From contig DASTNM010000133.1 of the NCBI GenBank assembly GCA_035762745.1, forward strand, positions 1-20,900: DNA of 20,900 nt. Reading direction: 5' to 3'. Source of the DNA: Candidatus Polarisedimenticolia bacterium (GTDB taxonomy: Bacteria; Acidobacteriota; Polarisedimenticolia; Gp22-AA2). The notes beneath the pieces were generated by a model that saw only the letters and a list, made by a program, of their open reading frames with translations, was not told where the DNA came from and did no database searches. The first letter of the stretch is position 1, and each line of letters starts with the position of its first letter. This document shows, piece after piece, positions 5,818-19,230 of this stretch. The position numbers and the translations under genes were made by a program.

Positions 5818-6810
5818 CTACTCCCGCCGCGCGCGCCTGATCGCCATCAGGGTCAGGTCGTCCCCCTTCGGCGACCCGGCCCGGAAAGCGGCCAGGTCGT
5901 CCAGGCAGGCGTGGAGCAGCGCCTTCGGAGCCAGTGCGTGCCGCTCCGCGGCCAGACGCGCCAGGCGCTCGGCGCCGTACTCGGCCTGGGCGCGGTTGCG
6001 CGCCTCGCTCAGGCCGTCGGTGTAGAGCAGGAGCGCGTCGTCCGGCTCGAGGTGGTGCGTCGCGACCGGGTACCCGCCGCTGCAGAAGAGGCCGAGCGGC
6101 AGCCCGGTTGCCTCGATGGCCAAGACGCGTCCGCGGCGCACCAGGAGCGGCGGCGGGTGGCCGGCATTGCAGATCTCCACCCGCCCCGAGCGGTCGGCAC
6201 GCCCGCACACCAGGGTGGCGAAGTGCGCCGACGGGAGGCTCTCGCAGAAGAGACGGTTGGCGCGCTCCATCAGGCCGCTGACCGGCAGACCCGTGCCGAC
6301 CAGGGTGCGCACGATGGCGCGCAGGCCGGTCATGAGCATCGAGGCGGCCACCCCCTTGCCCGAGACGTCTCCGATCAGGAAGAAGAGATCCCCGCCGTCG
6401 CCGTCCGAGGCGACCAGGTCGCAGTAGTCCCCGCTCACTTGCGACGCCGGCTCGTAGTGGTAGGCGGCCTCCCAGCCGCCGAGACGCAGATCCTGCTTCG
6501 GCAGGAGACCGTTCTGGACCCGGGCCGCGAGGTCGAGGTCGCGCTCGAGGGCCCGGCGCTCCGCCGTGTTGAGGTGGTCGAGGCAGGTGCGGATCAGCGG
6601 GTCGACCATCAGGCGGTCCTCCTCGATCGCATCGTGGCAGCTCTCGCACTTCCCATACGAGCCGCCGTCGATCCTCACCAGGGCCGCGTCGACCTCCTCC
6701 AGCAGTTGCCTGAGGTGCGCGGCCTCCGGGGCGCTCTCGAGGGCGGTCTCGATGCGCGCCCGGCGGTCGCGCAGCTCCGCCTGGAAATCGGGTTGTCCTG
6801 AGATCGCCAT
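5818..6810 (-). CDS. PP2C/SpoIIE-family serine phosphatase (RsbU/RsbP-like) carrying an N-terminal DksA/TraR-type C4 (here C3H) zinc finger.
   Basis: The C-terminal ~240 aa show SpoIIE/PP2C hallmarks: 'SGDYCDL', 'FFLIGDVSGKGVAASMLMTGL', 'YTDGLSEARN' and 'GDDLTLMAIRR'. N-terminal residues ~45-85 ('ALVRIDGGSYGKCESCHDAIEEDRLMVDPLIRTCLDH') align residue for residue with the DksA/TraR zinc-finger consensus (YGxCExCGxxIxxxRLxAxPxAxxCxxC) as I recall it. The best start is ATG 6810 ('MAISGQ…') with GAGGAGGA at 6815-6822; the track's ATG 6834 is 8 codons further upstream. Stop TAG (revcomp 5818-5820). Confidence 0.8.
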   Translation of the reverse strand: MAISGQPDFQAELRDRRARIETALESAPEAAHLRQLLEEVDAALVRIDGGSYGKCESCHDAIEEDRLMVDPLIRTCLDHLNTAERRALERDLDLAARVQNGLLPKQDLRLGGWEAAYHYEPASQVSGDYCDLVASDGDGGDLFFLIGDVSGKGVAASMLMTGLRAIVRTLVGTGLPVSGLMERANRLFCESLPSAHFATLVCGRADRSGRVEICNAGHPPPLLVRRGRVLAIEATGLPLGLFCSGGYPVATHHLEPDDALLLYTDGLSEARNRAQAEYGAERLARLAAERHALAPKALLHACLDDLAAFRAGSPKGDDLTLMAIRRARRE

Positions 6811-6988
6811 CGGGTCCTCCTCGCTTCGGCGCATCCTACTCGTGGACTTCGAAGTATAAGCCTCTTGCCTCCTCTGCCGTTATACGTCCCCGGAGACCCG
6901 GGCGGGTGGCGGTCGCCGGCGGCCACGGCGTGCGGTCATCACGAATGAGGGAATCACCCGGTCTCGGGGCCCGAGATCCCGGGGGCGG

Positions 6989-7018
6989 TTGACCGGCGGG
7001 GCGCCGAAGTGAGAGAAT
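6989..7018 (+). promoter_or_regulatory. Candidate extended -10 sigma70-like promoter upstream of the STAS gene: TTGACC (6989-6994), 18-nt spacer, TGaGAGAAT (7010-7018).
   Basis: The -35 hexamer matches 5/6, and the -10 hexamer GAGAAT is preceded by TGn. It lies in the 320-nt divergent intergenic region. This is a weak, sequence-only call. Confidence 0.25.
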
Positions 7019-7130: not shown

Positions 7131-7472
7131 ATGAGGATCAAGGTGCGCGACACGGGCAGGGTCCAGATCCTCGACCTGGATGGCGAGCTCAAGCTGGGCG
7201 TGGGCGACACCGCCCTGCGCGACACCGTCAAGGGGCTCATCAACACCGGACACAACAACCTCGTCCTCAATCTCAGGCATGTCCGCTGGATCGACTCCAG
7301 CGGCATGGGCGAGATGGTGGCCTGCCGGAAGCGGGTCGCCGAGAGGGGCGGCGAGCTCAAGCTCCTGATGCCCTCGGAGAAGATCTACAGCCTCCTGGTC
7401 CTGGTGCGATTCCACGAGTACTTCCAGATCCACCACGACGAGTCCCAGGCGGTCGTCTCCTTCATCGTCTGA
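7131..7472 (+). CDS. STAS-domain protein (anti-sigma-factor antagonist, SpoIIAA/RsbV-like), 113 aa.
   Basis: 'MRIKVRDTGRVQILDLDGEL…' shows the STAS fold pattern, with the conserved phosphorylatable 'DSSG' motif ('RWIDSSGMGEMV'). ATG 7131 is preceded by GGGGGAGG at 7116-7123. The track's upstream extension to 7017 lacks an RBS and is likely spurious. Stop TGA 7470-7472. Confidence 0.8.
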   Translation: MRIKVRDTGRVQILDLDGELKLGVGDTALRDTVKGLINTGHNNLVLNLRHVRWIDSSGMGEMVACRKRVAERGGELKLLMPSEKIYSLLVLVRFHEYFQIHHDESQAVVSFIV

Positions 7473-7601: not shown

Positions 7602-8123
7602 ATGGCGAGCCTGCTCTCGAAAATCTGGCGCACGGGAATCGTGACCGAGCCTCTGGCGGGCGGCTCGGACGAAGCGTGCGTCCTGGCGCGCGCCATCGCG
7701 GAGAAGACGCGCCGGTTGATCGGGCGGGCCCTCGCCATCCGCGAGGTGGACGCCGGGTCGTGCAACGGCTGCGAGATCGAGATCACCGGCCTCCCGACAC
7801 CTCTTTACGATTGCGAGCGCTTCGGCATCCATTTCGTCGCCTCGCCGCGCCACGCCGACATGCTGCTGGTCACGGGACCGGTGACCCGCAACATGGAGGT
7901 GCCGCTGCGCAAGACCTGGGAGGCGACCCCCGACCCGAAGCTGGTGGTCGCGGTCGGTGACTGTGCCCGCACCTGCGGCGTCTTCCGGGGCGGTTACGCC
8001 ATCGCCGGCAGCGTCGACGCGGTGATCCCGGTCGACCTCTTCATCCCCGGCTGCCCCCCCGAGCCGGCCGACATCCTGCGCGGCATCCTCGAGGCGCTCG
8101 ATCGACTTCCTGGGAGAGACTGA
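7602..8123 (+). CDS. NuoB-like small subunit of a group-4-hydrogenase/complex-I-like membrane module (HycG/HyfI/EchC-like; 'EhrS'), retaining the [4Fe-4S] ligands.
   Basis: 'SCNGCEIE', 'ERFGIHFVASPRHADMLLVTGPVT', 'PDPKLVVAVGDCARTCG' and 'IPVDLFIPGCPP' are colinear with E. coli HycG as I recall it. The start is ATG 7602 ('MASLLSKIW…'); the track's 7485 start adds an unconserved 39-aa Ala/Arg-rich leader. Stop TGA 8121-8123. Confidence 0.85.
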   Translation: MASLLSKIWRTGIVTEPLAGGSDEACVLARAIAEKTRRLIGRALAIREVDAGSCNGCEIEITGLPTPLYDCERFGIHFVASPRHADMLLVTGPVTRNMEVPLRKTWEATPDPKLVVAVGDCARTCGVFRGGYAIAGSVDAVIPVDLFIPGCPPEPADILRGILEALDRLPGRD

Positions 8124-8138
8124 GCCGCCGGGCGCGCG

Positions 8139-10184
8139 ATGATCGGCCTCCTCCCGATGATCACCACGTATCTCGCCGGCAGCGCGGCGGCGATCGCCCT
8201 GCCGGGTGACCGGGGCCGCCGTGTCGCCCAGGCGCTGGCGGGGGCCGGCGCGCTCCTCGGCCTCGCGACCGCTCTCTCCGTGATCGGCTCCGGGAAGGCG
8301 GCGGTCTTCGACCTCCCCTCGTCCGTTCCGGCGCTCGGGCTCGCCTTCCGTCTCGACGCGCTCGGCGCTTTCTTTCTCGCCCTGATCGGTCTCGTGGCGG
8401 TGCCGGCGGCGATTTACGCCGACGCCTACACGAAGGAGGAGGCGCCGCCCTCCGGCACACCCGGGAAGGCGGCGCCGCGCTCCGGACGGCTGGCGGGGGC
8501 GACGCTGAACCTCTTCCTTCTGGCGATGAGTCTGGTGGTGAGCGCCGCCAACGTCCTGGCCTTCCTGTTCGCGTGGGAGGCGATGTCGCTGGCCTCCTAC
8601 CTCCTGGTCGTGGGTGACGGGGAGAAGGCCGAGAGCGTTTCCGCCGGTCGCTGGTACGCCGGCATGGCGCACGCCGGCTTCGGGCTGATCGCGGCGGCCT
8701 TCTTCCTGCTCGCCGCCCGCGCCGGCGGGGATGGTTTCGAGACGATCCGCTCGCTGTCGTCGTCTCCGGGGCCCGCCCTCCGCAACGTCGTCTTCCTCCT
8801 GGCGCTGCTGGGGTTCGGATCGAAGGCCGGGATCGTGCCGCTGCACGTCTGGCTGCCGCGGGCCCACCCGGCGGCGCCGAGCCACGTCTCCGCCCTGATG
8901 TCGGGGGCGATGCTCCCGATCGGCGTCTATGGCCTGCTCCGCGTCGGTCTCGACCTGCTCGGCGGCGGCCCGCCGTGGTGGGGCGGTGTCGTCCTGGCGC
9001 TCGGGGCGGTCTCGGCGCTCAAGGGGGTCCTCTACGCCCTGACCGAGCAGGACCTCAAGCGCCTCCTCGCGTACAGCAGCATCGAGAACCTCGGCATCGT
9101 CTTCATGGGGATCGGGATCGGCTTCGTGTTCCACGGCCACGGCCGGGCCGACCTGGCCGCCGTGGCGCTGGCCGCCGGCCTCTACCATGCCCTGAACCAC
9201 GCCGCCTTCAAGGGATTGCTCTTCCTCGGGTCCGGGGCCGTGCTCAAGGCGACCGGCACGCGCAACCTGGAGGAGATGGGTGGCCTCATCAAGAGGATGC
9301 CGCAGACCGCCGCCTGCTTCCTCGTCGGCGCCGCGGCGATCGCGGCTCTGCCGCCGCTCAACGGCTTTGCCAGCGAGTGGCTGCTCCTGCAGGTGTTCAT
9401 GGCGGGGGCCTCGCTTCCGGAAGGGCTCACGGCCGCCCTGATGGCGCTGGCGGTCGGCACGCTGGCGCTCGCCGGCGGTCTGGCGGCCGCCTGCTTCGTC
9501 AAGGCGTTCGGCATTCCGTTCCTGGCGCTGCCCCGCTCGCGAGCCGCCGAAGAGGCGCGCGAGGTGGCCGGCTCGATGCGCTTCGCCATGATCGCCCTCG
9601 CCGCCGCCTGCGCCCTGCTCGGCCTGGCGCCGTCGGTCGTGATGTCGTTCCTGGCACGCGTCCTGGGCGGGATGCCCGGGGTGGACGCCGGCGGGGCGCT
9701 CTTCCGCCCGGGGTCCGTCCTCGAGGCGCCGCAGGGATCGTCGCGCATCGCGCCGCCGCTCCTGGCTCTCTGCCTGATCGTCGTCATCGCGGCGCTCGTG
9801 GTGGGCCTCCGGCTTCTCGGCGTGCGGGGTAGAACGCGGCTGGTGGAGACCTGGGGCTGCGGGCGGACGGTGCAGACGTCGCGCATGGAGATCACCAGCA
9901 TGGCGTTCGCCGAGCCGCTGCGGCGCGTCTTCGCCGGTCTCTACCGGCCGACCAAGGACCTGACGATCGGCTTCCACCCCGAGTCGAAGTATTTCGTCCG
10001 CTCGATCACCTACAGGAGCCGCATCCGCTCCTGGTTCGAGGAGGACCTGTACCGCTCGTTCTACGATCTCCTCCGGCCGCTGGCCGCCTCCGGCCGGCTG
10101 ATCCAGTCGGGCTCGGTGCACCTCTACCTGGCCTACATCGTCGCGGCGCTTCTGATCTTCCTGCTTCTCGGGCGGTGGCTCTGA
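8139..10184 (+). CDS. HyfB/HycC-like (NuoL/MrpA-type) antiporter-like membrane subunit, 681 aa ('EhrA').
   Basis: Polytopic protein with the proton-pumping-subunit signature 'WLPRAHPAAPSHVSALMSGAML' (cf. WLPDAH.EAP.PVSALIHAATMV). Its length matches HyfB (~670 aa). Confidence 0.85.
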   Translation: MIGLLPMITTYLAGSAAAIALPGDRGRRVAQALAGAGALLGLATALSVIGSGKAAVFDLPSSVPALGLAFRLDALGAFFLALIGLVAVPAAIYADAYTKEEAPPSGTPGKAAPRSGRLAGATLNLFLLAMSLVVSAANVLAFLFAWEAMSLASYLLVVGDGEKAESVSAGRWYAGMAHAGFGLIAAAFFLLAARAGGDGFETIRSLSSSPGPALRNVVFLLALLGFGSKAGIVPLHVWLPRAHPAAPSHVSALMSGAMLPIGVYGLLRVGLDLLGGGPPWWGGVVLALGAVSALKGVLYALTEQDLKRLLAYSSIENLGIVFMGIGIGFVFHGHGRADLAAVALAAGLYHALNHAAFKGLLFLGSGAVLKATGTRNLEEMGGLIKRMPQTAACFLVGAAAIAALPPLNGFASEWLLLQVFMAGASLPEGLTAALMALAVGTLALAGGLAAACFVKAFGIPFLALPRSRAAEEAREVAGSMRFAMIALAAACALLGLAPSVVMSFLARVLGGMPGVDAGGALFRPGSVLEAPQGSSRIAPPLLALCLIVVIAALVVGLRLLGVRGRTRLVETWGCGRTVQTSRMEITSMAFAEPLRRVFAGLYRPTKDLTIGFHPESKYFVRSITYRSRIRSWFEEDLYRSFYDLLRPLAASGRLIQSGSVHLYLAYIVAALLIFLLLGRWL

Positions 10185-11125
10185 TGGTCTCGTTCCTGGT
10201 GGAGCCGTTGCAGGTCGCGCTGACGCTCCTTCTGGCCCCGGGTCTCGTGGGGCTCGTGCGCCTGCTCAAGGCACGGCTGCAAGGCCGGCGCGGTGCCCCC
10301 GTCCGGCAGCCCTACCGTGAGCTGGTCAAGCTCTTCGGCAAAGAGCGGGTTGTCTCCAGGAACGCTTCCTGGATCTTCCACGCGACGCCATTCGTGGTGC
10401 TCGGCACCACCCTCGTCGTGGCCCTCCTGGTGCCGCTCCTGGCGGCCCCCCTGCCGCTCGACGGAGTCGGCGACCTCGTGGTGGTGGCCTACCTGCTGCT
10501 CCTCGGGACGTTCTTCCTGGCGCTGGCGGGGCTCGACCCCGGCTCGGCGTTCGGCGGCATGGGAGCGAGCCGTGAGATGACGATCGCGGCGCTGGCGGAG
10601 CCGACCCTGGCCCTGGCGATCTTCGCGCTGGCGGTCGGGGCCGGCTCGACCAACCTCGGTCGGATCGTGGCCCGCACCCTCTCCGACCCGGTCGAGACGC
10701 TCGGCCCGGGCCACGTGATGGCCTTCGCCGCCCTGGCGATCGTCATGATCGCGGAGTGCGGGCGGCTGCCGGTCGACAACCCGGCCACGCATCTCGAGCT
10801 GACGATGATTCACGAGGCGATGCTGCTCGAGTATTCCGGCCCCCACCTGGCGCTCCTGGAGTGGGCGGGGCACATGAAGTTCTTTCTCTTCCTGGCGCTG
10901 ATCTCGAACCTGGCGTTCCCGTGGGGCGTCGCCGTCCGGCCGGGTCCCGTCGCCCTGGCGATCGCCGTCCTGGCCCTGGCGGTGAAGGTCGTCCTGCTGG
11001 CGGTGGGGCTCGCGTTCCTGGAGACCCAGGTCGCCAAGCTGCGGCTGTTCCGGGTGCCGGAGCTTCTGGCGGTGTCGTTCCTCCTGGCGCTCCTGGCGGT
11101 GACCACCTCCTTCCTGGTGAGGTAG
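10184..11125 (+). CDS. HyfC/HycD-like (NuoH-type) membrane subunit ('EhrB').
   Basis: 'RQPYRELVKLFGKE' and 'GASREMTIAALAEP' are NuoH/HycD signatures. There are about 8 TM segments and the protein is ~314 aa. ATG 10184 overlaps the upstream stop (TGATG); GTG 10175 is an alternative start. Confidence 0.85.
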   Translation: MVSFLVEPLQVALTLLLAPGLVGLVRLLKARLQGRRGAPVRQPYRELVKLFGKERVVSRNASWIFHATPFVVLGTTLVVALLVPLLAAPLPLDGVGDLVVVAYLLLLGTFFLALAGLDPGSAFGGMGASREMTIAALAEPTLALAIFALAVGAGSTNLGRIVARTLSDPVETLGPGHVMAFAALAIVMIAECGRLPVDNPATHLELTMIHEAMLLEYSGPHLALLEWAGHMKFFLFLALISNLAFPWGVAVRPGPVALAIAVLALAVKVVLLAVGLAFLETQVAKLRLFRVPELLAVSFLLALLAVTTSFLVR

Positions 11126-11128
11126 CGC

Positions 11129-11788
11129 ATGAGCGCCGATCTCTACACACGCCTCGCCACCCTGGCCTCGAGCCTGGTGCTCCTGAGCGGGATCGCCATC
11201 CTCTGGCGGCACAGCCTGCAGGCTTACATCGCCTCGTTCGCGCGCCAGTCGCTCCTCTTCGTCATGGCGATCCTGATCGTCGCCGTGGGCGAGAAGGATC
11301 CGAGGCTTTACGGGATGGCGCTGATGGTCTTCGCGCTCAAGGTAGTCTTCATCCCGAGGGTCCTGCGCCGGGTGCAGCGGCACGTCGGCGCCGAGATGGA
11401 GATCCATCCCTACGTCAACACGCCGGTCAGCCTGGCGCTCGCCGGCGTCCTGACGCTCCTTGCCTACGCCGTCGCCCAGCCGGTGGTCGCCCTGAGCGAG
11501 GCTCCGACACGCGGCGGGATCCCGCTGGCGCTCGCCGTCGTCTTCGTCGGGCTGCTCATCCTGGTCAGCCGCCGCAGCGCCTTGACTCAGATCGTCGGCT
11601 TCCTGGTGCTGGAGAACGGCATCGCGCTCCTGGCGGTCCTGGTCACCTCCGGCGTCCCGCTCATCGTCGAGCTGGGGGTCTTCCTCGACGTGCTCCTGGG
11701 ATTTCTGGTGATGCAGGTCTTCGTCTCGCGCATCCGCGAGACCTTCGACACGATCGACGTCGACCGGCTGCGGGGGCTGAGGCATTGA
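11129..11788 (+). CDS. HyfE-like small membrane subunit (hydrogenase-4 component E family; 'EhrC').
   Basis: It is 219 aa versus 216 aa for E. coli HyfE. 'SRRSALTQIVGFLVLENGIALLAVLV' matches HyfE 'SQRNILRQIFGYCLMENGSHLVLALL', and the C-terminal 'TIDVDRLRGL' matches 'TLDVNNLTALKG' (HyfE recalled from memory). The start lies 3 nt after the upstream stop. Confidence 0.8.
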   Translation: MSADLYTRLATLASSLVLLSGIAILWRHSLQAYIASFARQSLLFVMAILIVAVGEKDPRLYGMALMVFALKVVFIPRVLRRVQRHVGAEMEIHPYVNTPVSLALAGVLTLLAYAVAQPVVALSEAPTRGGIPLALAVVFVGLLILVSRRSALTQIVGFLVLENGIALLAVLVTSGVPLIVELGVFLDVLLGFLVMQVFVSRIRETFDTIDVDRLRGLRH

Positions 11789-11792
11789 GACG

Positions 11793-13262
11793 ATGATTCT
11801 TCCGATCCTGCTGGTCCTGCCGCTTCTGGCCGCCGCTATGGCATTGCTTCGGAAGCCCGACCACCCGCTCGTGGCGCGGGCCGGCGCCGCCCTGTCGGGA
11901 GTGACGTTCGCGCTGGCGCTGGTCCTGGCACGACGGTGCCTGACGCGCGGGGCCGTGGCCTTCGGACCCGGGGCGTTCCTGCGGGCCGACAGCCTGTCGG
12001 CGATCCTGACGCTGATCGTGTCGGGGGTGGCCTGTGTGTCGATCGGGTCCGGCGTCAACGCCCTGCGCCACGGCACGGGGGAGAACGGGCCGATCGACGA
12101 CGCGCTGCGGCGCCGTTATCATGTCCTCACCCACCTCTTCGTCTTCACCATGCTCCTGGCGGTCCTGGCGAACAACGTCGGCGTCATGTGGGTCGCCGTC
12201 GAGGCGACGACGATCACGACCGCGTTCCTGGTCGGTGTGCGACGGTCGAAGGCGGCGCTCGAGGCGTCCTGGAAGTACATCCTGATCGGCTCGGTCGGCA
12301 TCGCCCTGGCCTTTCTCGGCACCGTGCTCGGCTACTTCAATTTCGTGCAGCGGGTGGGGCAGACCCCCTACGCCCTGCACTGGACGGTTCTGAAAGGGGT
12401 CGCCGCCGGCCTGGACGGCGATGTGCTGCGGCTCGCCTTCGTCTTCATCCTGATCGGCTACGGCACCAAGGCGGGGCTGGCGCCGATGCACACCTGGCTT
12501 CCCGACGCCCACTCGGAGGCGCCGGCGCCGATCTCGGCGATGATGTCCGGGTCGCTCCTGGCCGTCGCCCTGTACGCCATCCTGCGCTGGAAGACGGTGG
12601 TCGACGCCTGCGTGGGGCACGCCTTCACCGACAGGATGCTCCTTCTGATCGGGACGCTCACCGTCACGGTGGCGGCCACGCTCCTGATCCGGCAGGCGAG
12701 CTACAAAAGGATGCTGGCCTACTCCAGCGTCGAGCAGATGGGGCTCGTCTGCGTCGGCCTGGCGTTCGGGCCGGCCGGGACCCTGGCGGCGCTCATGTTG
12801 ATGATCGGGCACGCGGCCGGCAAATCGATGGCCTTCCTGCTCTCGGGGAACCTGCTGGCCGCCTACGGCTCGACCCGCATCGCCTCGGTTCGCGGGGTGC
12901 TGCGCGTCATGCCGTGGAGCGGCGGTCTCTTCATGATCGCCATCCTGGCGCTCATGGGCCTGCCGCCGTTCGGGATCTTCCTGTCGGAGATGCTTCTCGT
13001 GCGCGCCGGGTTCCTGTCCGGACACCCGTGGGCCACCGGCCTGGTCCTGGCGATGGTCGTGGTGATCTTCGTGTCGCTCCTGGCACATCTGCAGCGGCTC
13101 CCGTACGGGGAGCCGCCCCACGAGGTGCCGCGCGGCGAGCCCGACCGGTCTTCGCTTCCGCCCCTGGCCCTGAACCTGGTGGTCCTCCTGGCCCTCGGGC
13201 TGGTGGTGCCCGCTCCGCTGCTCCGGCTCCTGGGACGGGCGGTGGAGGTCGTCAGCCGATGA
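11793..13262 (+). CDS. HyfF/HyfD-like (NuoM/NuoN-type) antiporter-like membrane subunit, 489 aa ('EhrD').
   Basis: 'HTWLPDAHSEAPAPISAMMSGSLL' is the canonical NuoM/N/L motif. The protein has multiple TM helices, and its start lies 4 nt after the hyfE-like stop. Confidence 0.85.
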   Translation: MILPILLVLPLLAAAMALLRKPDHPLVARAGAALSGVTFALALVLARRCLTRGAVAFGPGAFLRADSLSAILTLIVSGVACVSIGSGVNALRHGTGENGPIDDALRRRYHVLTHLFVFTMLLAVLANNVGVMWVAVEATTITTAFLVGVRRSKAALEASWKYILIGSVGIALAFLGTVLGYFNFVQRVGQTPYALHWTVLKGVAAGLDGDVLRLAFVFILIGYGTKAGLAPMHTWLPDAHSEAPAPISAMMSGSLLAVALYAILRWKTVVDACVGHAFTDRMLLLIGTLTVTVAATLLIRQASYKRMLAYSSVEQMGLVCVGLAFGPAGTLAALMLMIGHAAGKSMAFLLSGNLLAAYGSTRIASVRGVLRVMPWSGGLFMIAILALMGLPPFGIFLSEMLLVRAGFLSGHPWATGLVLAMVVVIFVSLLAHLQRLPYGEPPHEVPRGEPDRSSLPPLALNLVVLLALGLVVPAPLLRLLGRAVEVVSR

Positions 13263-14839
13263 CTCTGCGGGAGACCCTGGCGGACCTGGGCGCGACGTCG
13301 TTCACGGAGCGGGGGCGCACCGTGCTCTGTCGTCTGCCGCGTGCCTCGGTGCGCGGCGCCGCGCGCGCGCTTCTCGGGAACTTCCCGCTCGAGCTGTCCC
13401 TGATGCTGGCCGCCGATCGGCGCTCCGACCGGGGCGCCTTCGAGGTGATCTACCTCTACGCCGATCGGCGCGACAACCGGTTTCTCGAGATCACCGTCGA
13501 GGTGCCGCCCGCGGACCCGGTCGTCCCCTCGATCGCCACCATCTGCTACCTCGCCTCGCGTCACGAGAGGGAGATCCACGACCAGTTCGGGATCACGCCC
13601 CGGGAGCATCCCGACCTGCGGCCCCTGGTGCGGCACGGCTTCTGGCCCGAGGATTACCACCCGTTGCGCAAAGACGCGATCCCGCCCGTCGACCTGCGTG
13701 ACGACGACCGCCCATTCCCGTTTCAACGGGTGGAAGGAGAGGGGATCTACGAGATCCCGGTCGGCCCCGTGCACGCCGGGATCATCGAGCCGGGTCACTT
13801 CCGCTTCAGCGTCGACGGCGAGACGATCATCGACATGAAGGCGCGCCTCTACTACACCCACAAGGGGACCGAGAAGCTGTTCGAGGGGCGCGGTCCCGAC
13901 GAGGCGATCGAGCTGGCCGAGCGGATCTCAGGCGATACGTCGATCGGCCACGCGCTGGCATTCTGCCAGGCGATCGAGGCGCTGGCCGGCGTCGAGGCGC
14001 CGCCGCGGGCGCGGCACATCCGTGTCGTTCTCCTGGAGATGGAGCGGCTCTACAACCACGTCGCCGACTTCGGCTCCATCGCCAACGACACCGGCTTCGC
14101 CGTCGCCCACGCGCACGCCTTCCGGATCCGCGAGGCGCTCTTGCGCCTGAACAAGCGGCTGACCGGCCACCGGCTGCTGCGCGGTCTTCTGGTCCCCGGG
14201 GGGGTGGTGCGCGATCTGCCGGCCGATCTCGCGGGCGATCCCGGAGACGACCTCTCGCTGCCCCGGGAGCTCGGCCGGGTGGGGGCCGATTTCGAGGCGG
14301 TCGTGGCGATCGCGCTCGACAACAGCATGCTGCGCGACCGGCTGCGGGGCGCCGGGATCCTGACCACGCGCACGGCGCTGGACCACGGTGTTCTCGGCTA
14401 TGTCGCCCGCGCCTCCGGTATCGACCGCGACGTCCGCCGGGACCACCCGTTCGCCGCCTACGACCGGCTCGCCTTCAAGGTCGCGGTCCTCGACTCGGGC
14501 GACGTCGAGGCGCGCACCCTCGTCCGCGTGGAGGAGGTGCGCCAGTCGATCGGTCTCATCCGCCAGGCGCTCGAGACGAGGCCGGCCGGCGATTTGCGCC
14601 TGCCGCTGCCGCCGCTGCCGCGCCGGGAGAGCGCCTTCGCCCTGGTGGAGGGGTGGCGCGGCGCGATCCTGCACTGGGTGCTGTCCGACGACAGGGGACG
14701 GCTCGACCGCGTCAAGGTGCAGGACCCGTCCTTCGTCAACTGGCGGCCACTCACCTTCGCCCTGCTCAAGAACATCGTCCCGGACTTTCCGCTGTGCAAC
14801 AAGAGCTTCAATCTCTCCTACTCGGGGAACGATCTGTGA
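13259..14839 (+). CDS. Fused NuoC–NuoD-like 'large subunit' (HycE/HyfG-like; 'EhrL'), 526 aa, lacking the [NiFe]-ligating cysteines.
   Basis: This is the C-terminal part of track ORF 11936..14839; its upstream part is an alternate-frame artefact over hyfF. ATG 13259 overlaps the hyfF-like stop (ATGA). The NuoC-like N-terminus has 'EREIHDQFGITPREHPDLRPLVRHGFWPEDYHPLRKD'. The NuoD/large-subunit core has 'IPVGPVHAGIIEPGHFRF'. At the L1 motif position the sequence is 'ERISGDTSIGH' (nt 13919-13951) instead of ER.CG.C…H. The C-terminus is '…DFPLCNKSFNLSYSGNDL' instead of DPCxSCxxR. Confidence 0.85.
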   Translation: MTLRETLADLGATSFTERGRTVLCRLPRASVRGAARALLGNFPLELSLMLAADRRSDRGAFEVIYLYADRRDNRFLEITVEVPPADPVVPSIATICYLASRHEREIHDQFGITPREHPDLRPLVRHGFWPEDYHPLRKDAIPPVDLRDDDRPFPFQRVEGEGIYEIPVGPVHAGIIEPGHFRFSVDGETIIDMKARLYYTHKGTEKLFEGRGPDEAIELAERISGDTSIGHALAFCQAIEALAGVEAPPRARHIRVVLLEMERLYNHVADFGSIANDTGFAVAHAHAFRIREALLRLNKRLTGHRLLRGLLVPGGVVRDLPADLAGDPGDDLSLPRELGRVGADFEAVVAIALDNSMLRDRLRGAGILTTRTALDHGVLGYVARASGIDRDVRRDHPFAAYDRLAFKVAVLDSGDVEARTLVRVEEVRQSIGLIRQALETRPAGDLRLPLPPLPRRESAFALVEGWRGAILHWVLSDDRGRLDRVKVQDPSFVNWRPLTFALLKNIVPDFPLCNKSFNLSYSGNDL

Positions 14840-14869: not shown

Positions 14870-17800
14870 GTGACCTCATCCAGAAAAGCCCTGGCACTGG
14901 GCGCGCTGTGCGCCCTGACCTACCTGGCCGTCTCCGTGCGCCGCCTGGGAGCGCCCGACACTCTGTTCGTCCTCGACGCCCCGCTGTTCCGCATCGCGCC
15001 GCGCGTCGTCGCGCCGGGCTGGCATCTGGTTCCGCGCCTCATCGGCCGCCTGTCGCGCTACCCGGCGTCGTCCAGGACGCTGCGCGTCGATCTCTCGGGT
15101 GAGCGGGCGGCGGCGAGCCGCGAGGGGGCGCGGGTCGAGGTGGAGGTCGATCTGTCCTACGCCGTCCAGGCCGAGCGGGTCCTCGACCTGCACGCCGCCC
15201 TCGGTCCGAGCTACGAGATCCGCCTCGCCGGCCTGGTGCGCCGGGAGGCGGCGGAGAGGATCCGCGAGGTCTCCTATGACGTCGTGCGTAACCGCGATCC
15301 GGAGCTGGCGCGCGTGGTGCAGAGCGGCCTCGAGCATCGACTCGCCGGGGGGGGGCTCGAGCTGACGCGGCTGCGCATCGTGCAGGTCGCCGCCGCGGGC
15401 GAGACCTCGGGGACGATCCTGCGCGCCGGCAGCCCGCCGGTCGATCGCCAGGTCGTGCTGATCGGTGTCGACTCCTTCGACTGGAGGATCATCGACCCGC
15501 TGCTCAAGGCGGGGCGGATGCCGAACCTGGCGCGTCTGGTGGCGCGCGGGGCCCGCGCCCACCTGCGCACCATCCGTCCGATCCTGTCACCGGTCATCTG
15601 GACCAGCATCGCCACCGGCGTCAAGCCTTCGCGGCACGGCATCGTCGACTTCGTGGTGGCGGCGCCCGACAGCGGCGCCCTCCTGCCGGTCACCAGCGCC
15701 ATGCGGCAGGTCCCGGCGCTCTGGACCCTCCTGAGCCGGCAGGGGGTCGGCGTCGACGTGGTCGCCTGGTGGGCCACCTGGCCGGCCGAGACCGTGCGCG
15801 GCCGGATCGTCACCGACCGGGTCGCCTTCCAGCTCTTCGCGGAGTCGGTCAAGGACGACTGGAAGAGCGCCGATCGGGAGAAGAGCCGCGGCAAGACCTA
15901 TCCGCCCGACCTGTTCGAGACGATCCGGCCGCTCATCAAGGTGCCCGCGGAGGTGACCGACCAGGAGGTGGCGGAGTTCCTGCCGGGCGGGCGCTTCCCG
16001 CGCGCGCCGGGCGTTGCGGAGCGGGATCAGCTGAACGACTTCCGCACCGTCCTGGCCGCCGGGCAGACCTATCACGCCATCGCCCGGCGGCTTCTCGCGC
16101 CCGAGGGGACGGACGACGCGGCCGGGGGGACGGGAGGCCCGCGGCTGCGGATGATCTACTACGAGGGACCCGACACCACGTCGCATCTCTTCATGCGCTA
16201 CCGCCCGCCGCTGCTGCCCGGCGTGCGGCGTGACCAGATGGCGCTGTTCGGAGGGATCGTCGATCGCTACTACGAAAGGCAGGATCGCTACATCGGGGAA
16301 ATCGTCGCGGCGGCCGGCGCCGGCGCCACGGTGATCGTCGTCTCCGACCACGGCTTCAAGTCGGACAGCAACCGGCCGCCGCACAGCGACCCGCGCATCG
16401 ACAAAGGGAACGCCGCCGACTGGCACACGCCGATCGGTGTGCTCGTGATGGCCGGCCCCGACATCCGTTCCGGGTTCGACGTCGAGGCGGCCTCGGTCCT
16501 CGACATCGCGCCGACGATTCTGGCGCTCTACGGCTTGCCGGTGGCGCGCGACATGGACGGCCAGCCGCTCGCCCAGGCGCTCGATCCCGCCTTCCTGGCG
16601 CGGCGGCCGATCACCTGGGTCGACACCTACGGCGGCTTCCGGCCGCCCGCGCAGGAGGTCGCCTCGGCCGCCTCCCCCGGGGACGCCGAGATCGTCGAGA
16701 AGCTCCGAAACCTGGGCTATATCGGCGAGGAGAGGATGACGGCGCACAACAACCGCGGCGTGATCGCCATGGACGAGGGGGATCTCGACGGCGCCATCGC
16801 CAGCTTCGAGCGCGCCCTCAAGACCGACGGCAGCGCCAATCCGATGGTGCGCACCAACCTGGCCGATGCCTGGCTCCGGAAAGGAGATCTCGACAAGGCG
16901 CGCCGGTACGCCGAAGAGGCGCTTCTGGCGGAGCCGCGCGACAAGCAGGCCGAGCTGACCCTCGCGGGGGTGGCGCTGAAACAGGGGGACCTGGGCGGCG
17001 CCGAGCGGCACCTTGGAGCCGCCATCGCCATCGATCCCACCTTCGTGCCGGCCCACTCGCAGCTCGGCAGGCTCCAGGCGCAGCGGGGGAACGACGACGC
17101 GGCGCTGGCCGAGTACCGTCGCGTCGTCGAGATCGCCCCCTTGAGCCCGATCGAGTACAACAACATCGGCAACATCTACAGAAAGCGCGGCCAGATCGAC
17201 AAGGCGATGCGGGCCTACCAGGAGGCGCTGCGCTGCGATGCGCAGTACATCGGCGCCTGCAACAACCTCGGCCTCTGCCTCCAGGAGAAGGGGCGCCTCG
17301 ACGAGGCGCGCGCGCTCTACGAGCGGGCCCTCGAGATCCGCCCCGAGAACCCGATCCTGCGCAACAGCCTGGGGACGCTTCTGTCGCTGAAGGGGGACAA
17401 GAAAGGCGCGCTCGAGCAGTTCGAGCGCGCCGTGCGGGCCGATCCCGACTGGCCGGTGGCGCAGGGGAACATGGCGACGCTCCTGTACGAGCAGGGGCGG
17501 CTCCCCGAGGCGCGCGCCGCCTTCGAGCGCTGGGTGAAGCTCGAGCCGGAGTCGGTCGAGGGACGCCTCGAATACGCCCTGGCGCTTCTGATGACGCAGC
17601 AGTGGGACGAGGCCATCCGGCAGTTCGGCGAGGTCCTCAAGCGCAATCCGAGCGAGCTTCGGGCCAACATCGCCCTCGGTGAGACGCTCTTGCGCAAGGG
17701 AGATCTGGAAGGGGCCCAGGCCCACCTCGAGAAGGCCGCGGGGATCAGCGGCAAGCTGCCGCGCGTCTACAACAGCCTGGCCGAGGTGTACGAGAAGCGC

Positions 17801-17911
17801 GGACTGACGGAGCAGGCCCAGCAGGCCTACCGGAGGTCACTGGCCATCGAGCCCCGGCAGGAGGAGGTCCGCCGGCGCCTCGCCGCCCTCGTCCTGCGCC
17901 TCCGTCCCTGA
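14870..17911 (+). CDS. 1013-aa multidomain protein: N-terminal TM/signal anchor, then an SPFH/band-7-like domain, then an alkaline-phosphatase-superfamily (type I phosphodiesterase/nucleotide-pyrophosphatase-like) domain, then about nine C-terminal TPR repeats.
   Basis: Residues ~1-23 are hydrophobic ('ALALGALCALTYLAVSV'). Residues ~25-190 show SPFH patterning ('VAPGWHLVPRLIGRLSRYPASSRTLRVDL…VEVEVDLSYAV…GLELTRLRIVQV'). Residues ~200-600 have 'VVLIGVDSFDW', 'SPVIWTSIATGVKPSRHGI', 'VVSDHGF' and 'DIAPTILALYGLP', typical of the PF01663/AlkP core. Residues ~620-1000 are repeated 34-aa TPR units (e.g. 'NNIGNIYRKRGQIDKAMRAYQEALRCDAQ'). The GTG start at 14870 lies 30 nt after the large-subunit stop and has only a distant GGAGG (14849-14853). 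Confidence 0.8.
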   Translation: MTSSRKALALGALCALTYLAVSVRRLGAPDTLFVLDAPLFRIAPRVVAPGWHLVPRLIGRLSRYPASSRTLRVDLSGERAAASREGARVEVEVDLSYAVQAERVLDLHAALGPSYEIRLAGLVRREAAERIREVSYDVVRNRDPELARVVQSGLEHRLAGGGLELTRLRIVQVAAAGETSGTILRAGSPPVDRQVVLIGVDSFDWRIIDPLLKAGRMPNLARLVARGARAHLRTIRPILSPVIWTSIATGVKPSRHGIVDFVVAAPDSGALLPVTSAMRQVPALWTLLSRQGVGVDVVAWWATWPAETVRGRIVTDRVAFQLFAESVKDDWKSADREKSRGKTYPPDLFETIRPLIKVPAEVTDQEVAEFLPGGRFPRAPGVAERDQLNDFRTVLAAGQTYHAIARRLLAPEGTDDAAGGTGGPRLRMIYYEGPDTTSHLFMRYRPPLLPGVRRDQMALFGGIVDRYYERQDRYIGEIVAAAGAGATVIVVSDHGFKSDSNRPPHSDPRIDKGNAADWHTPIGVLVMAGPDIRSGFDVEAASVLDIAPTILALYGLPVARDMDGQPLAQALDPAFLARRPITWVDTYGGFRPPAQEVASAASPGDAEIVEKLRNLGYIGEERMTAHNNRGVIAMDEGDLDGAIASFERALKTDGSANPMVRTNLADAWLRKGDLDKARRYAEEALLAEPRDKQAELTLAGVALKQGDLGGAERHLGAAIAIDPTFVPAHSQLGRLQAQRGNDDAALAEYRRVVEIAPLSPIEYNNIGNIYRKRGQIDKAMRAYQEALRCDAQYIGACNNLGLCLQEKGRLDEARALYERALEIRPENPILRNSLGTLLSLKGDKKGALEQFERAVRADPDWPVAQGNMATLLYEQGRLPEARAAFERWVKLEPESVEGRLEYALALLMTQQWDEAIRQFGEVLKRNPSELRANIALGETLLRKGDLEGAQAHLEKAAGISGKLPRVYNSLAEVYEKRGLTEQAQQAYRRSLAIEPRQEEVRRRLAALVLRLRP

Positions 17912-17929: not shown

Positions 17930-17970
17930 GCAAAAAAAAGAGGCGGCCCCGCGCCAGGGCCGCCTCTCGT
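17930..17970. terminator. Bidirectional intrinsic terminator between the convergent TPR gene (+) and porin gene (-): A8, stem GAGGCGGCC (17940-17948), 9-nt loop, stem GGCCGCCTC (17958-17966).
   Basis: A perfect 9-bp GC stem is flanked by aaaaaaaa (17932-17939), which reads as a U8 tract immediately after the hairpin for the minus-strand gene, and by tcgtcgtctctc on the plus side. Confidence 0.6.
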
Positions 17971-17989: not shown

Positions 17990-18997
17990 TCACTTCTTGC
18001 CGAACCTGAAGATCACCCCGCCGTGCAGGCTGTTGAAGGCGATGGTGTCGCGCCCACGGCTCTGGACCGAGCCGATCCCGGTCATCGACGCGGGCAGAGG
18101 ATCGGCCACCAGCCCGTTCCATTCCGAGGCCGAATACCCCAGGTAGTAATCGAGGTGCCCGTACCCCGCCCAGACCGCCTTCAGGTCGTAGTCGCGGATC
18201 TCCCCCCGGATGTAATCGTCGTTCACCGAGAGGTTGTCGACATTACCGCCGCTGTCGACCGCGCGCGCCGTCCCCTTCGTGTCGGCCTGCAGGAACGACA
18301 CCGACATCCCGCCCACCATCTGGAAGTGCTTGGTGAACTCGAAGACCGCCGCCACGCCGACCTTGGGACCCTTGGCGGTCGATTTGAAATTCTTGTTCTG
18401 GGTATAGGTATAGGAGCCGAGACCGTAGGTGATTGTCCCCGAGAACCCCTGGTCCTCCTCGTAGGTGGCCACGCGCAGCCCCGCGATCCAGCGGACGCTC
18501 AGCTTTTCCCCGGCGATCATCGGCCGGACGTAGTCGATATCGACGGTCTTGGCCTTGATGCTGGAGGTCGCCGTGACGTCGATCGGGTAGGTGGCGTTGG
18601 ACGCATATCCGAGGTAGGGAGAAGCGCTGAAGCCGTAGCCGACGATCGTCGGGTAGACGCCGCCCAGGAGTCCGTTCTTGGTGTTCTCGTCGTCGTTGTC
18701 GAAGTTCCAGTAGGAGACGCGGAGGCTTCCGAGGCTCTTGCCGAAGGAGTAGCCGACCGAGCCGCGCCAGGTCGTGTGCGAGTCGTTCTCCATCACCAGA
18801 CGCTCGGTTGTCGAGACCGGGGCATTCGTGACCACGTGGTTGGCGTAATGCTGGTCGAGACTGTTCGGCTGCGTCATGGCGACGTCGAGGGCGGCGAACC
18901 ATCCCTTGTAGTCGCCGTCGGCAGCCCGGCTCGGAGTGGCGATCGCCAGCATCGCGCAGGCCGCAACGCCGGCCACCGCCAGGCGTGTCATCTGCAT
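17990..18997 (-). CDS. Outer-membrane beta-barrel (porin-like) protein with a signal peptide, ~335 aa.
   Basis: 'MQMTRLAVAGVAACAMLAIATPSRAADG' is a Sec signal peptide with an AxA site. The mature protein is rich in Tyr/Gly/Asn/Thr/Ser with alternating amphipathic strands, ends in 'GGVIFRFGKK', and has noticeably lower local GC. ATG 18997 is preceded by GGGGGAA. The track's extension to 19207 has no support. Stop TGA (revcomp 17990-17992). Confidence 0.65.
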   Translation of the reverse strand: MQMTRLAVAGVAACAMLAIATPSRAADGDYKGWFAALDVAMTQPNSLDQHYANHVVTNAPVSTTERLVMENDSHTTWRGSVGYSFGKSLGSLRVSYWNFDNDDENTKNGLLGGVYPTIVGYGFSASPYLGYASNATYPIDVTATSSIKAKTVDIDYVRPMIAGEKLSVRWIAGLRVATYEEDQGFSGTITYGLGSYTYTQNKNFKSTAKGPKVGVAAVFEFTKHFQMVGGMSVSFLQADTKGTARAVDSGGNVDNLSVNDDYIRGEIRDYDLKAVWAGYGHLDYYLGYSASEWNGLVADPLPASMTGIGSVQSRGRDTIAFNSLHGGVIFRFGKK

Positions 18998-19230
18998 CTG
19001 TCGTTCCCCCTGATGAGTCGAGTCGAGATGCGAAAGGATCGGTTGACAGCGGGTCGAAGCGATCCACCTCCTTCCTCCGGGCACGGACCCGGAAGCTCTG
19101 CGACGGCGGCGATCGGAAAACGCTCGAGCGACAAGCGGCAAGACGCCGGGGCCATACCGGCCCCTGCGACACCGCTCCTTATATCCAGGTGGCGAAGCGG
19201 AAGTCAAGCCGGGGAGGGAGACGGCGCCTG

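Follow-up and report, generated by a model that had tools for sequence, protein, structure and literature searches.

Background

What can a complex built like a membrane-bound hydrogenase be doing once the residues that hold its nickel-iron (NiFe) centre are gone? This question is raised by six genes at positions 7602-14839 of a 20,900-nucleotide (20.9 kb) stretch, hereafter called the window, from the genome assembly of a Candidatus Polarisedimenticolia bacterium of the Acidobacteriota (contig DASTNM010000133.1). A first-pass annotation, made by reading the DNA and its open reading frames (ORFs), had proposed that the genes encode a Hyf-like membrane module of the energy-converting hydrogenase-related (Ehr) type rather than a hydrogenase. 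According to papers that cite the original descriptions, Ehr complexes are membrane complexes related to group-4 hydrogenases but without the NiFe cysteines in their large subunit. The same papers trace their discovery to Geobacter (EhrA-D, L and S) and describe them as widespread and of no known function. We analyzed the six gene products and 80 related loci, focusing on their motifs, gene order, phylogeny and neighbourhood. The best explanation of the cluster is a six-subunit Ehr complex (EhrS-A-B-C-D-L) of the small-subunit-first subtype, a reading to which we give a probability of about 80%.

Identification of the six genes

All six ehr genes lie closely packed on the plus strand and were identified with Pfam and NCBI profile models and by BLAST as follows:

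7602..8123, + strand: EhrS, NuoB/HycG-like small subunit, 173 aa (PF01058, E = 2.8e-31)
8139..10184, + strand: EhrA, HyfB/NuoL-like antiporter-type subunit, 681 aa (NF005086, 669.9 bits against a cut-off of 667)
10184..11125, + strand: EhrB, HycD/NuoH-like subunit, 313 aa (PF00146, E = 7e-40; best BLAST match HycD)
11129..11788, + strand: EhrC, HyfE-like membrane subunit, 219 aa (NF008556, E = 1e-28)
11793..13262, + strand: EhrD, HyfF/NuoM-N-like antiporter-type subunit, 489 aa (NF005044, 438 bits)
13259..14839, + strand: EhrL, fused NuoC and NuoD/HycE-like large subunit, 526 aa (PF00329, PF00346 and a weak PF00374 match)

These searches bear out the six-gene Hyf-like module, in its coordinates as well as its domains, as it was first proposed. 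The genes for EhrA and EhrB share a TGATG overlap at 10184 and those for EhrD and EhrL an ATGA overlap at 13259, and the remaining junctions are gaps of 3 nt (11125/11129), 4 nt (11788/11793) and 15 nt (8123/8139). The tight coupling originally described therefore holds for both overlaps and for the two gaps of 3-4 nt, but not for the first junction, which is 15 nt and not 3-4 nt long. The reading frames of all six genes are intact and translationally coupled, and the five that were checked show a codon-position G+C bias typical of coding sequence, with a third-position G+C content (GC3) of 0.81-0.93.

Subunit identities were calculated by BLAST against the Hyc/Hyf and Nuo proteins of E. coli K-12. 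Each of the six subunits matched its Hyc/Hyf counterpart better than its Nuo counterpart: EhrS shares 49% identity with HycG against 32% with NuoB, EhrA 41% with HyfB against 32% with NuoL, EhrB 35% with HycD against 26% with NuoH, EhrD 41% with HyfF against 28% with NuoM and EhrL 35% with HycE against 28% with NuoCD, while EhrC shares 27% with HyfE and matched no Nuo protein.

Loss of the NiFe site in the large subunit

EhrL was compared with PDB sequences by phmmer and aligned with 119 homologues by MAFFT, and both procedures gave the same registration of L1 and L2, the two motifs that carry the NiFe cysteines in hydrogenases. The relevant segments are:

13919..13951, + strand: former L1 motif ERISGDTSIGH (residues 221-231), aligned with HycE DRVCGICGFAH
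14810..14836, + strand: former L2 motif and C-terminus NLSYSGNDL (residues 518-526), aligned with HycE DPCYSCTDR
13760..13807, + strand: loop VGPVHAGIIEPGHFRF, nearly invariant in the family and of low AlphaFold confidence, which we take, by homology with NuoD, to be the beta1-beta2 loop

The four NiFe ligands of HycE are all replaced in EhrL (C241 by S224, C244 by T227, C531 by S520 and C534 by G523), and the replacing residues occur in 118, 114, 119 and 119 of the 119 close homologues, respectively. The NiFe cysteines are also gone in most representatives of the EhrL family at 50% identity. The first-pass annotation had read the N-terminal motif correctly as ERISGDTSIGH with Ser224 and Thr227, but it had taken DFPLCNKSF (residues 509-517) for the equivalent of L2 and concluded that three of the four ligands were lost; the true L2 is NLSYSGNDL, nine residues later, and the alignment to HycE raises the count to four of four. 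The lone Cys513 aligns with an isoleucine of HycE at a position that varies in the family (C, I, V, T or A). A misplaced motif had been named in advance as something that might conceal genuine L1/L2 cysteines elsewhere in the protein; L2 had indeed been mis-registered, yet the corrected columns are free of cysteine as well. EhrL ends at the residue aligned with R537, the last residue of mature HycE, and has no protease-cleaved extension, whereas HycE and HyfG each run about 32 residues further, in a peptide that is cleaved off. Because the four NiFe cysteines are replaced and the maturation peptide is absent, the complex of the window is not expected to be a hydrogenase.

What remains of the site is far from variable. 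In 44 sequences with a mean identity of 36%, 31 columns of EhrL are invariant, and they are concentrated in the former active-site region. Among the invariant elements are D226, which sits between the two former L1 cysteine positions, the loop VGPxHAGxIEPGHFRF, the segment DFPxxNKS, and S520, Y521, G523 and D525 of the C-terminal SYxGxD.

The best solved relative of EhrL by sequence is HycE (7z0s_E, E = 6e-72), and the same chain is the best fold match of the AlphaFold monomer (pLDDT confidence 80, pTM 0.85; TM-score 0.80), ahead of NuoCD. No structure of an Ehr or Hyf complex was found among the PDB matches of the sequence and fold searches. Measured against the curated NuoD and NuoB families, the NuoD equivalog NF004739 scores 229.9 against a cut-off of 360 and TIGR01957 scores 110 against 142.7; the broad subfamily model NF005012 alone passes (123.8 against 116).

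Assignment to the Ehr complexes

The hyc-family genes Rv0081-Rv0087 of M. tuberculosis have been described as homologous to Ehr complexes (PMC6728331), and EhrL shares 47% identity over 484 residues with HycE of M. tuberculosis (the Rv0087-type protein), in which ERISGDTS and NKSFNxSYxGNDL are identical. Related loci are referred to here by number where they need to be told apart. Locus L068, from a Mycobacterium, shows the order S-A-B-C-D-L downstream of an ArsR-type regulator, the type to which Rv0081 belongs; searches with the L068 large subunit return the family named 'formate hydrogenase HycE' in mycobacteria, entries from M. tuberculosis included. The window thus shares its gene order and its large-subunit motifs with the Rv0082-Rv0087-type cluster. 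It encodes a group-4/NuoD-type large subunit in which the L1 and L2 cysteines are absent and a NuoB-like subunit with four cysteines, together with NuoH-like, HyfE-like and two NuoL/M/N-like membrane subunits in one operon. Because of the 47% identity, the identical motifs and the common gene order, the cluster agrees with the Ehr complexes in every respect that can be judged from sequence. The cysteine loss, the subunit set, the match to M. tuberculosis HycE and the tree placement given below all support the original preference for an Ehr-type complex over a hydrogenase.

The small-subunit-first order had been regarded as the Ehr arrangement. This is true in part, since S-A-B-C-D-L is one of the two common orders among the 80 related loci, but A-B-C-D-L-S is at least as frequent. 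The Geobacter cluster GSU0739-0745 (EhrA-D, L and S) has, according to its published description, the same six subunit types as the window. The statement that no Ehr complex has been characterized biochemically agrees with the papers that we found up to 2026, and literature searches turned up no functional work on Rv0083/85/86 since 2020.

Distribution and phylogeny of the family

EhrL is matched by more than 7,950 clusters at 90% identity (E <= 1e-20) and by 1,290 representatives at 50% identity (E <= 1e-30), and a pattern scan with one genome per species found carriers in at least 596 species genomes of bacteria and archaea. Among the carriers are members of the Chloroflexota, Methylomirabilota, Nitrospirota, Actinomycetota, Acidobacteriota, Verrucomicrobiota, Omnitrophota, Patescibacteria and Bacillota, as well as methanotrophs and several archaea; a cluster look-up of 'AR[IV]SGD'-type representatives added cultured Burkholderia and Falsiroseomonas with cysteine-less copies. 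The family is already catalogued and very common, several papers mention its occurrence in genomes and metagenomes, and the window is another member that will not surprise a specialist.

The commonest signature among the 50% representatives is 'SGD[S/T/N/E]' plus 'SY[S/A]G'. All four cysteines are kept in 23 representatives, which end in 'PLINKSFELCYSCxDR' and likewise have no extension. We provisionally equate these four-cysteine sequences with the hydrogenases called group 4f and with the 'EhrL with four Cys' of D. ruminis. In the phylogenetic tree, EhrL of the window falls among the cysteine-less sequences, with the four-cysteine group neighbouring or basal, HycE and HyfG outside and NuoCD as a distant outgroup; the large subunit, as predicted, groups neither with HycE/HyfG nor with NuoCD. 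In a second tree, built from the locus sequences, the window clusters with Chloroflexota and Methylomirabilota, beside the actinomycete (mycobacterial) group. Both are neighbour-joining trees with no support values, and the tree of 50% representatives is star-like and poorly resolved, so that only the coarse placement is used here. A report on D. ruminis (PMC3569383) describes an EhrL with four cysteines.

The six-gene cassette is conserved while its flanks vary, and the same cassette is present in most of the 80 related loci. Variants were observed in some of them: two Nitrospirota loci (L047 and L063) carry two ehr cassettes in tandem, the EhrA gene is duplicated in L008, L028 and L035, and the EhrD gene is duplicated in L021 and L041.

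The small subunit and the graded loss of clusters

The cysteines C54, C57, C121 and C151 of EhrS (SCNGC...GDC...GCPP) fall on the cluster ligands in alignments with HycG and NuoB and are kept in 68-71 of 73 homologues, in accordance with the initial claim that the small subunit retains all the cysteines for one [4Fe-4S] cluster. EhrS has CxxC where E. coli NuoB shows a tandem CC, and among solved structures it is matched best by 7z0s_G and 6cfw_J. In other Ehr small subunits a leader that resembles the N-terminus MASLLSKIWRTGIVT of EhrS stands ahead of a ferredoxin domain, and this resemblance supports the ATG at 7602 as the start codon.

The ferredoxin domain itself is missing. Pfam detected no Fer4 domain in EhrS, and all six frames of the window are free of the CxxCxxCxxxC motif. 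The same holds throughout the small-subunit-first type, in which none of 26 loci has the ferredoxin motif and the short leader 'MxxxLxKxxxTGxVT' that elsewhere precedes the domain is kept. In many small-subunit-last loci, by contrast, the small subunit has a ferredoxin domain at its N-terminus, or its gene follows a small gene for a separate ferredoxin. Eight cysteines, sufficient for two clusters, are present in this domain in L034, a four-cysteine member, and in some that are cysteine-less (L056), and four cysteines, sufficient for one cluster, in many cysteine-less members (L033, L038, L041, L049 and L026). Judged by these motifs, iron-sulfur sites have been lost stepwise in Ehr small subunits, from eight cysteines through four to none in the type of the window. 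The new detail that emerges is that the window belongs to a small-subunit-first subtype which has lost the ferredoxin domain kept by most other members. Since both the NiFe site and the 2x[4Fe-4S] ferredoxin domain are lost, the one [4Fe-4S] cluster in EhrS is the only redox cofactor predicted for the complex.

The membrane subunits

Both antiporter-type subunits keep the glutamate of transmembrane helix (TM) 5, the lysine of TM7, the histidine and lysine of TM11 and the glutamate of TM12. In EhrA, E147, K229, H354, K358 and E413 align with E144, K229, H338 and K342 of NuoL and E407 of NuoM in E. coli; in EhrD, E137, K226, H340, K344 and E399 occupy the conserved channel positions. EhrA in addition has a C-terminal extension that ends in a hydrophobic helix. 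The residues expected for ion translocation are thus mostly intact.

The loop between TM5 and TM6 of EhrB is the family-specific PVDNPATHLELTMIHEAMLLEYSG (nt 10769-10840), which has a three-residue insertion relative to the 'PFDxxEAEQEL' of HycD/NuoH. It reads PxDNxxTHLELTM[IV]HE in nearly all readable loci, those with four cysteines included, and its consensus PVDNPxTHLELTMIHEAM is near-invariant. The C-terminal half of EhrC is weakly NuoK-like (hhalign E = 1.8e-33 to HyfE and 0.026 to NuoK), with conserved glutamates in LENG (161-164) and VELG (180-183); a weak PF00420 match was obtained for the EhrC homologue of L087, and a sequence search of EhrC against solved structures returned no match even at E = 1.

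Comparison with related systems

Besides the mycobacterial and Geobacter clusters, several systems share parts of this architecture. Many Ehr loci differ from the window in having the small subunit last and a fused or separate ferredoxin domain, which the window lacks. The putative group 4f (Ehf) relatives, represented by L034 of Thermincola and L060 of Desulfotomaculum, form a neighbouring clade and share the membrane module, the EhrB loop PVDNPxTHLELTMIHE, the segment DFPLxNKSF and the extension-free C-terminus, but they keep CGxC...CxxC and a ferredoxin domain on or beside the small subunit, neither of which is found in the window. The best-scoring characterized homologues of all six subunits, at 27-49% identity, are those of E. 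coli Hyf/Hyc (formate hydrogenlyase, PDB 7Z0S). What sets Hyf/Hyc apart from the window is the presence of the NiFe cysteines, of a C-terminal peptide that is cleaved off and of the iron-sulfur subunits HycF/HyfH and HycB/HyfA; they also have a formate dehydrogenase partner and adjacent hyp/hycI genes, none of which were found in the window. Complex I (NuoB, CD, H, L, M and N) has common ancestry with the cluster and is likewise a machine with no NiFe centre, an N2-type cluster and antiporter residues, but the window lacks an NADH-input module as well as NuoI, A and J, shows CxxC instead of CC and is distant in sequence. MBS comprises 13 subunits, including Mrp-type and NuoI-like ones, and the window contains no gene of the NuoI-like kind. 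In concept, the MBX/MBS complexes of Pyrococcus (PDB 6U8Y) are the same, namely group-4 relatives re-purposed for a substrate other than H2, although they match at a greater distance (6u8y_L, E = 2.7e-34, against 6e-72 for HycE).

Proposed function and alternative explanations

The cassette appears to be functional and under selection rather than decaying, because EhrL has invariant columns, the [4Fe-4S] ligands are conserved and the antiporter residues are present. For its function we tentatively favour a redox-linked proton or ion translocator, at somewhat less than even odds. In such a machine the EhrS cluster, exposed by the loss of the ferredoxin domain, would accept electrons one at a time from a low-potential donor, either soluble or peripheral, and pass them to an acceptor in a remodelled polar pocket at the junction of EhrL, EhrS and EhrB. 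The pocket would be lined by S224, the invariant D226, T227, S520, Y521 and the invariant HAGIIEPGH loop, and charge together with conformational change would be relayed through the TM5-6 loop of EhrB and the glutamates of EhrC to EhrA and EhrD.

Expression data of relatives point to a function in stress or energy shortage. In M. tuberculosis, rv0082-rv0087 are under the control of rv0081, a transcription factor central to the early response to hypoxia, and all Ehr subunits are abundant in formate-grown Geobacter. In Methylocystis, an ehfA-F cluster assigned to group 4f was induced 16- to 20-fold at pH 5 and no H2 was detected (bioRxiv 10.1101/2025.08.29.672306). That complex may be a cysteine-less Ehr complex that was mis-classed, as the motif fragment 'AARVS' resembles the 'ARVSGD' variants of L1.

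Several observations speak against these assignments of identity and function. The positions that we take to be the canonical quinone ligands of NuoCD are replaced, the His of 'PSAH' in the beta1-beta2 loop by I176 and the Tyr of 'DRIEY', next to the former L1, by G225. The central TM8 lysine of NuoM/N is absent from both EhrA (P260) and EhrD (A257). The most conserved, pocket-forming segments of EhrL (residues 150-202 and 493-526) have a pLDDT below 50 in the AlphaFold monomer; we read them as segments that fold only against partner subunits, and therefore make no geometric claim on the pocket. To look for partners, we clustered every ORF of 80 aa or more from 81 loci. No recurrent redox partner emerged among the flanking ORFs; nothing recurred but the cassette genes themselves, their antisense shadow ORFs and regulators of the ArsR type. 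In a 2026 Geobacter paper the ehr genes are regarded as non-functional and drifting, and the authors of the Methylocystis study call their complex a 4f hydrogenase.

The main alternative is a redox-independent or redox-gated Mrp-like cation/proton antiporter, in which the EhrS/EhrL cap is a structural lid or sensor and the successive loss of NiFe, ferredoxin clusters and quinone ligands marks an exit from oxidoreductase chemistry. Cofactors do dwindle along the tree, from the basal four-cysteine members, some with an eight-cysteine ferredoxin, through cysteine-less members with a four-cysteine ferredoxin to the small-subunit-first type with none; a conserved redox partner gene is missing, EhrA and EhrD keep most antiporter residues, and induction of relatives by acid stress fits pH homeostasis. 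A passive lid, however, would hardly explain why conservation in EhrL peaks in the former active-site region, nor does it sit well with four [4Fe-4S] ligands that are still kept in nearly all homologues, and we regard this alternative as doubtful. Decay into a functionless remnant of a hydrogenase operon, as the view of the 2026 Geobacter paper would have it, is very improbable in the face of six intact, translationally coupled frames with coding-type GC3, a cassette present in at least 596 species genomes of bacteria and archaea, and invariant family-specific motifs.

The two readings suggested by database names fare no better. A real [NiFe]-hydrogenase of the Hyc/Hyf type (group 4a) or of group 4f, as JGI and some NCBI names have it, would account for HycE being the closest solved relative, for the best matches of all subunits to Hyc/Hyf and for relatives with all four cysteines that share the membrane module and the EhrB loop; yet the ligand cysteines are replaced in the window and across its clade, and no HycF/NuoI-type subunit and no hyp, hycI or formate dehydrogenase gene was found in the 20.9 kb, which makes this reading scarcely credible. 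Equally hard to credit is a genuine NADH:quinone oxidoreductase, which one NCBI name implies. The Complex1_30kDa and Complex1_49kDa domains of Pfam and a NuoD equivalog match of 229.9 bits point that way, but that score lies below the curated cut-off, EhrL is closer to HycE than to NuoCD, NuoCD is a distant outgroup in the tree, EhrS has CxxC and not CC, NuoA, E, F, G, I and J are absent from the window and from related cassettes, and NuoK is represented only by the weakly similar half of EhrC. The absence of the other Nuo subunits and of the presumed quinone-ligand His and Tyr is why the complex is not taken for complex I.

A more far-reaching reading is conceivable, though we consider it improbable. 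The small-subunit-first Ehr complex may be the most reduced complex-I-type machine known, with six subunits and a single [4Fe-4S] cluster; its former NiFe pocket might have been rebuilt around D226, with Ser, Thr and Tyr, as a new catalytic, metal- or proton-binding site, and the cluster might gate proton pumping. If this were true, the D226-pocket complex would serve pH or redox homeostasis under acid or hypoxia stress and would not be a conventional donor:quinone oxidoreductase.

Gene neighbourhood and regulation

The window has a G+C content of about 70%, and the cluster is flanked by the following genes:

21-581: zinc-type dehydrogenase fragment, upstream of ehr
1431-2693: purM, upstream of ehr
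upstream of ehr: purN, radC and tyrS
5818-6834, - strand: SpoIIE/PP2C phosphatase with a DksA/TraR-type zinc finger, upstream and divergent from the STAS gene
7131..7472, + strand: STAS-domain protein of the anti-sigma-antagonist type (PF01740, E = 7.6e-12), directly upstream of ehrS
14870-17911, + strand: 1013-aa protein with a type I phosphodiesterase/nucleotide pyrophosphatase domain and many TPR repeats, 31 nt after ehrL
17990-19207, - strand: Legionella-type outer membrane protein gene, downstream
downstream of ehr: GNAT acetyltransferase gene

Genes for Hyp proteins, HycI, formate dehydrogenase or ferredoxin were not found among the ORFs scanned in the window, and an Rfam scan of the whole window returned no RNA family. 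A single transcript may run from the STAS gene through the ehr cassette into the 1013-aa gene downstream, because a promoter-like (sigma-70-like) site precedes the STAS gene at 6989-7018 and no terminator-like site was scored before a hairpin at 17938-17968, which itself was scored on the minus strand.

The SpoIIE phosphatase and the STAS protein look like a partner-switching pair. The STAS gene is absent upstream of the cassette in L088, L004 and L006, and the STAS/SpoIIE pairing is not conserved beside ehr elsewhere. In about 18 of the 81 loci, with either gene order, an ArsR/HTH_5 regulator lies immediately upstream (L009 2946-3317, L068 3006-3353 and L004 3562-3912, for example). The window has no such regulator upstream of its cassette and in this respect, with its STAS gene and divergent SpoIIE phosphatase, differs from the mycobacteria and the other loci with an ArsR-type gene. 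Clusters of ABC ATPase, glycosyltransferase and sigma-54 activator genes near ehr in the 81 loci look incidental.

In L087, the nearest relative, ehrL is likewise followed by a phosphodiesterase-TPR gene (with a weak Band_7 match) and a Legionella-type outer membrane protein gene. A membrane H+-pyrophosphatase gene was observed 2.5-6 kb downstream of ehr on the opposite strand in the two nearest relatives, L087 (11028-13193) and L088 (12248-14413), and is not present in the window; its proximity could be due to chance or to a shared bioenergetic neighbourhood. Two further features of the window were recorded. A PF13505 outer-membrane beta-barrel match covers the C-terminal 170 residues (about 648-1200) of an over-long ORF at 648-2546 on the minus strand; a small outer membrane protein gene probably lies here between the dehydrogenase fragment and purM, the rest of the ORF being a shadow of purM. 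The G+C content dips to 0.64 at window positions 18001-19000, compared with about 0.70 elsewhere, and the dip coincides with the Legionella-type gene.

Conclusions

Public names for the cysteine-less EhrL family are unreliable and none of them fits. EhrL of the window is called 'NADH-quinone oxidoreductase subunit C' by NCBI, and members of the same family carry the names 'Ni,Fe-hydrogenase III large subunit', 'formate hydrogenase HycE', 'Hydrogenase-3 subunit E' and 'hydrogenase expression protein HypE'. Ehr complexes sit between energy-converting hydrogenases and complex I and are carried by hundreds of species, among them M. tuberculosis, nitrifiers, Burkholderia, candidate-phyla bacteria and archaea, to which the window adds a member from the Acidobacteriota (Candidatus Polarisedimenticolia). 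Their function is no more testable in this metagenome-assembled genome than in the cultured carriers. The comparison of 80 related loci frames the family as one in which the NiFe centre and the ferredoxin clusters are lost by grades until a single cluster is left, while the ion-translocation residues and the distinctive coupling loop of EhrB are kept throughout. The small-subunit-first type, which is also that of mycobacteria, is thus the simplest setting for asking which minimal chemistry can drive a complex-I-like pump.

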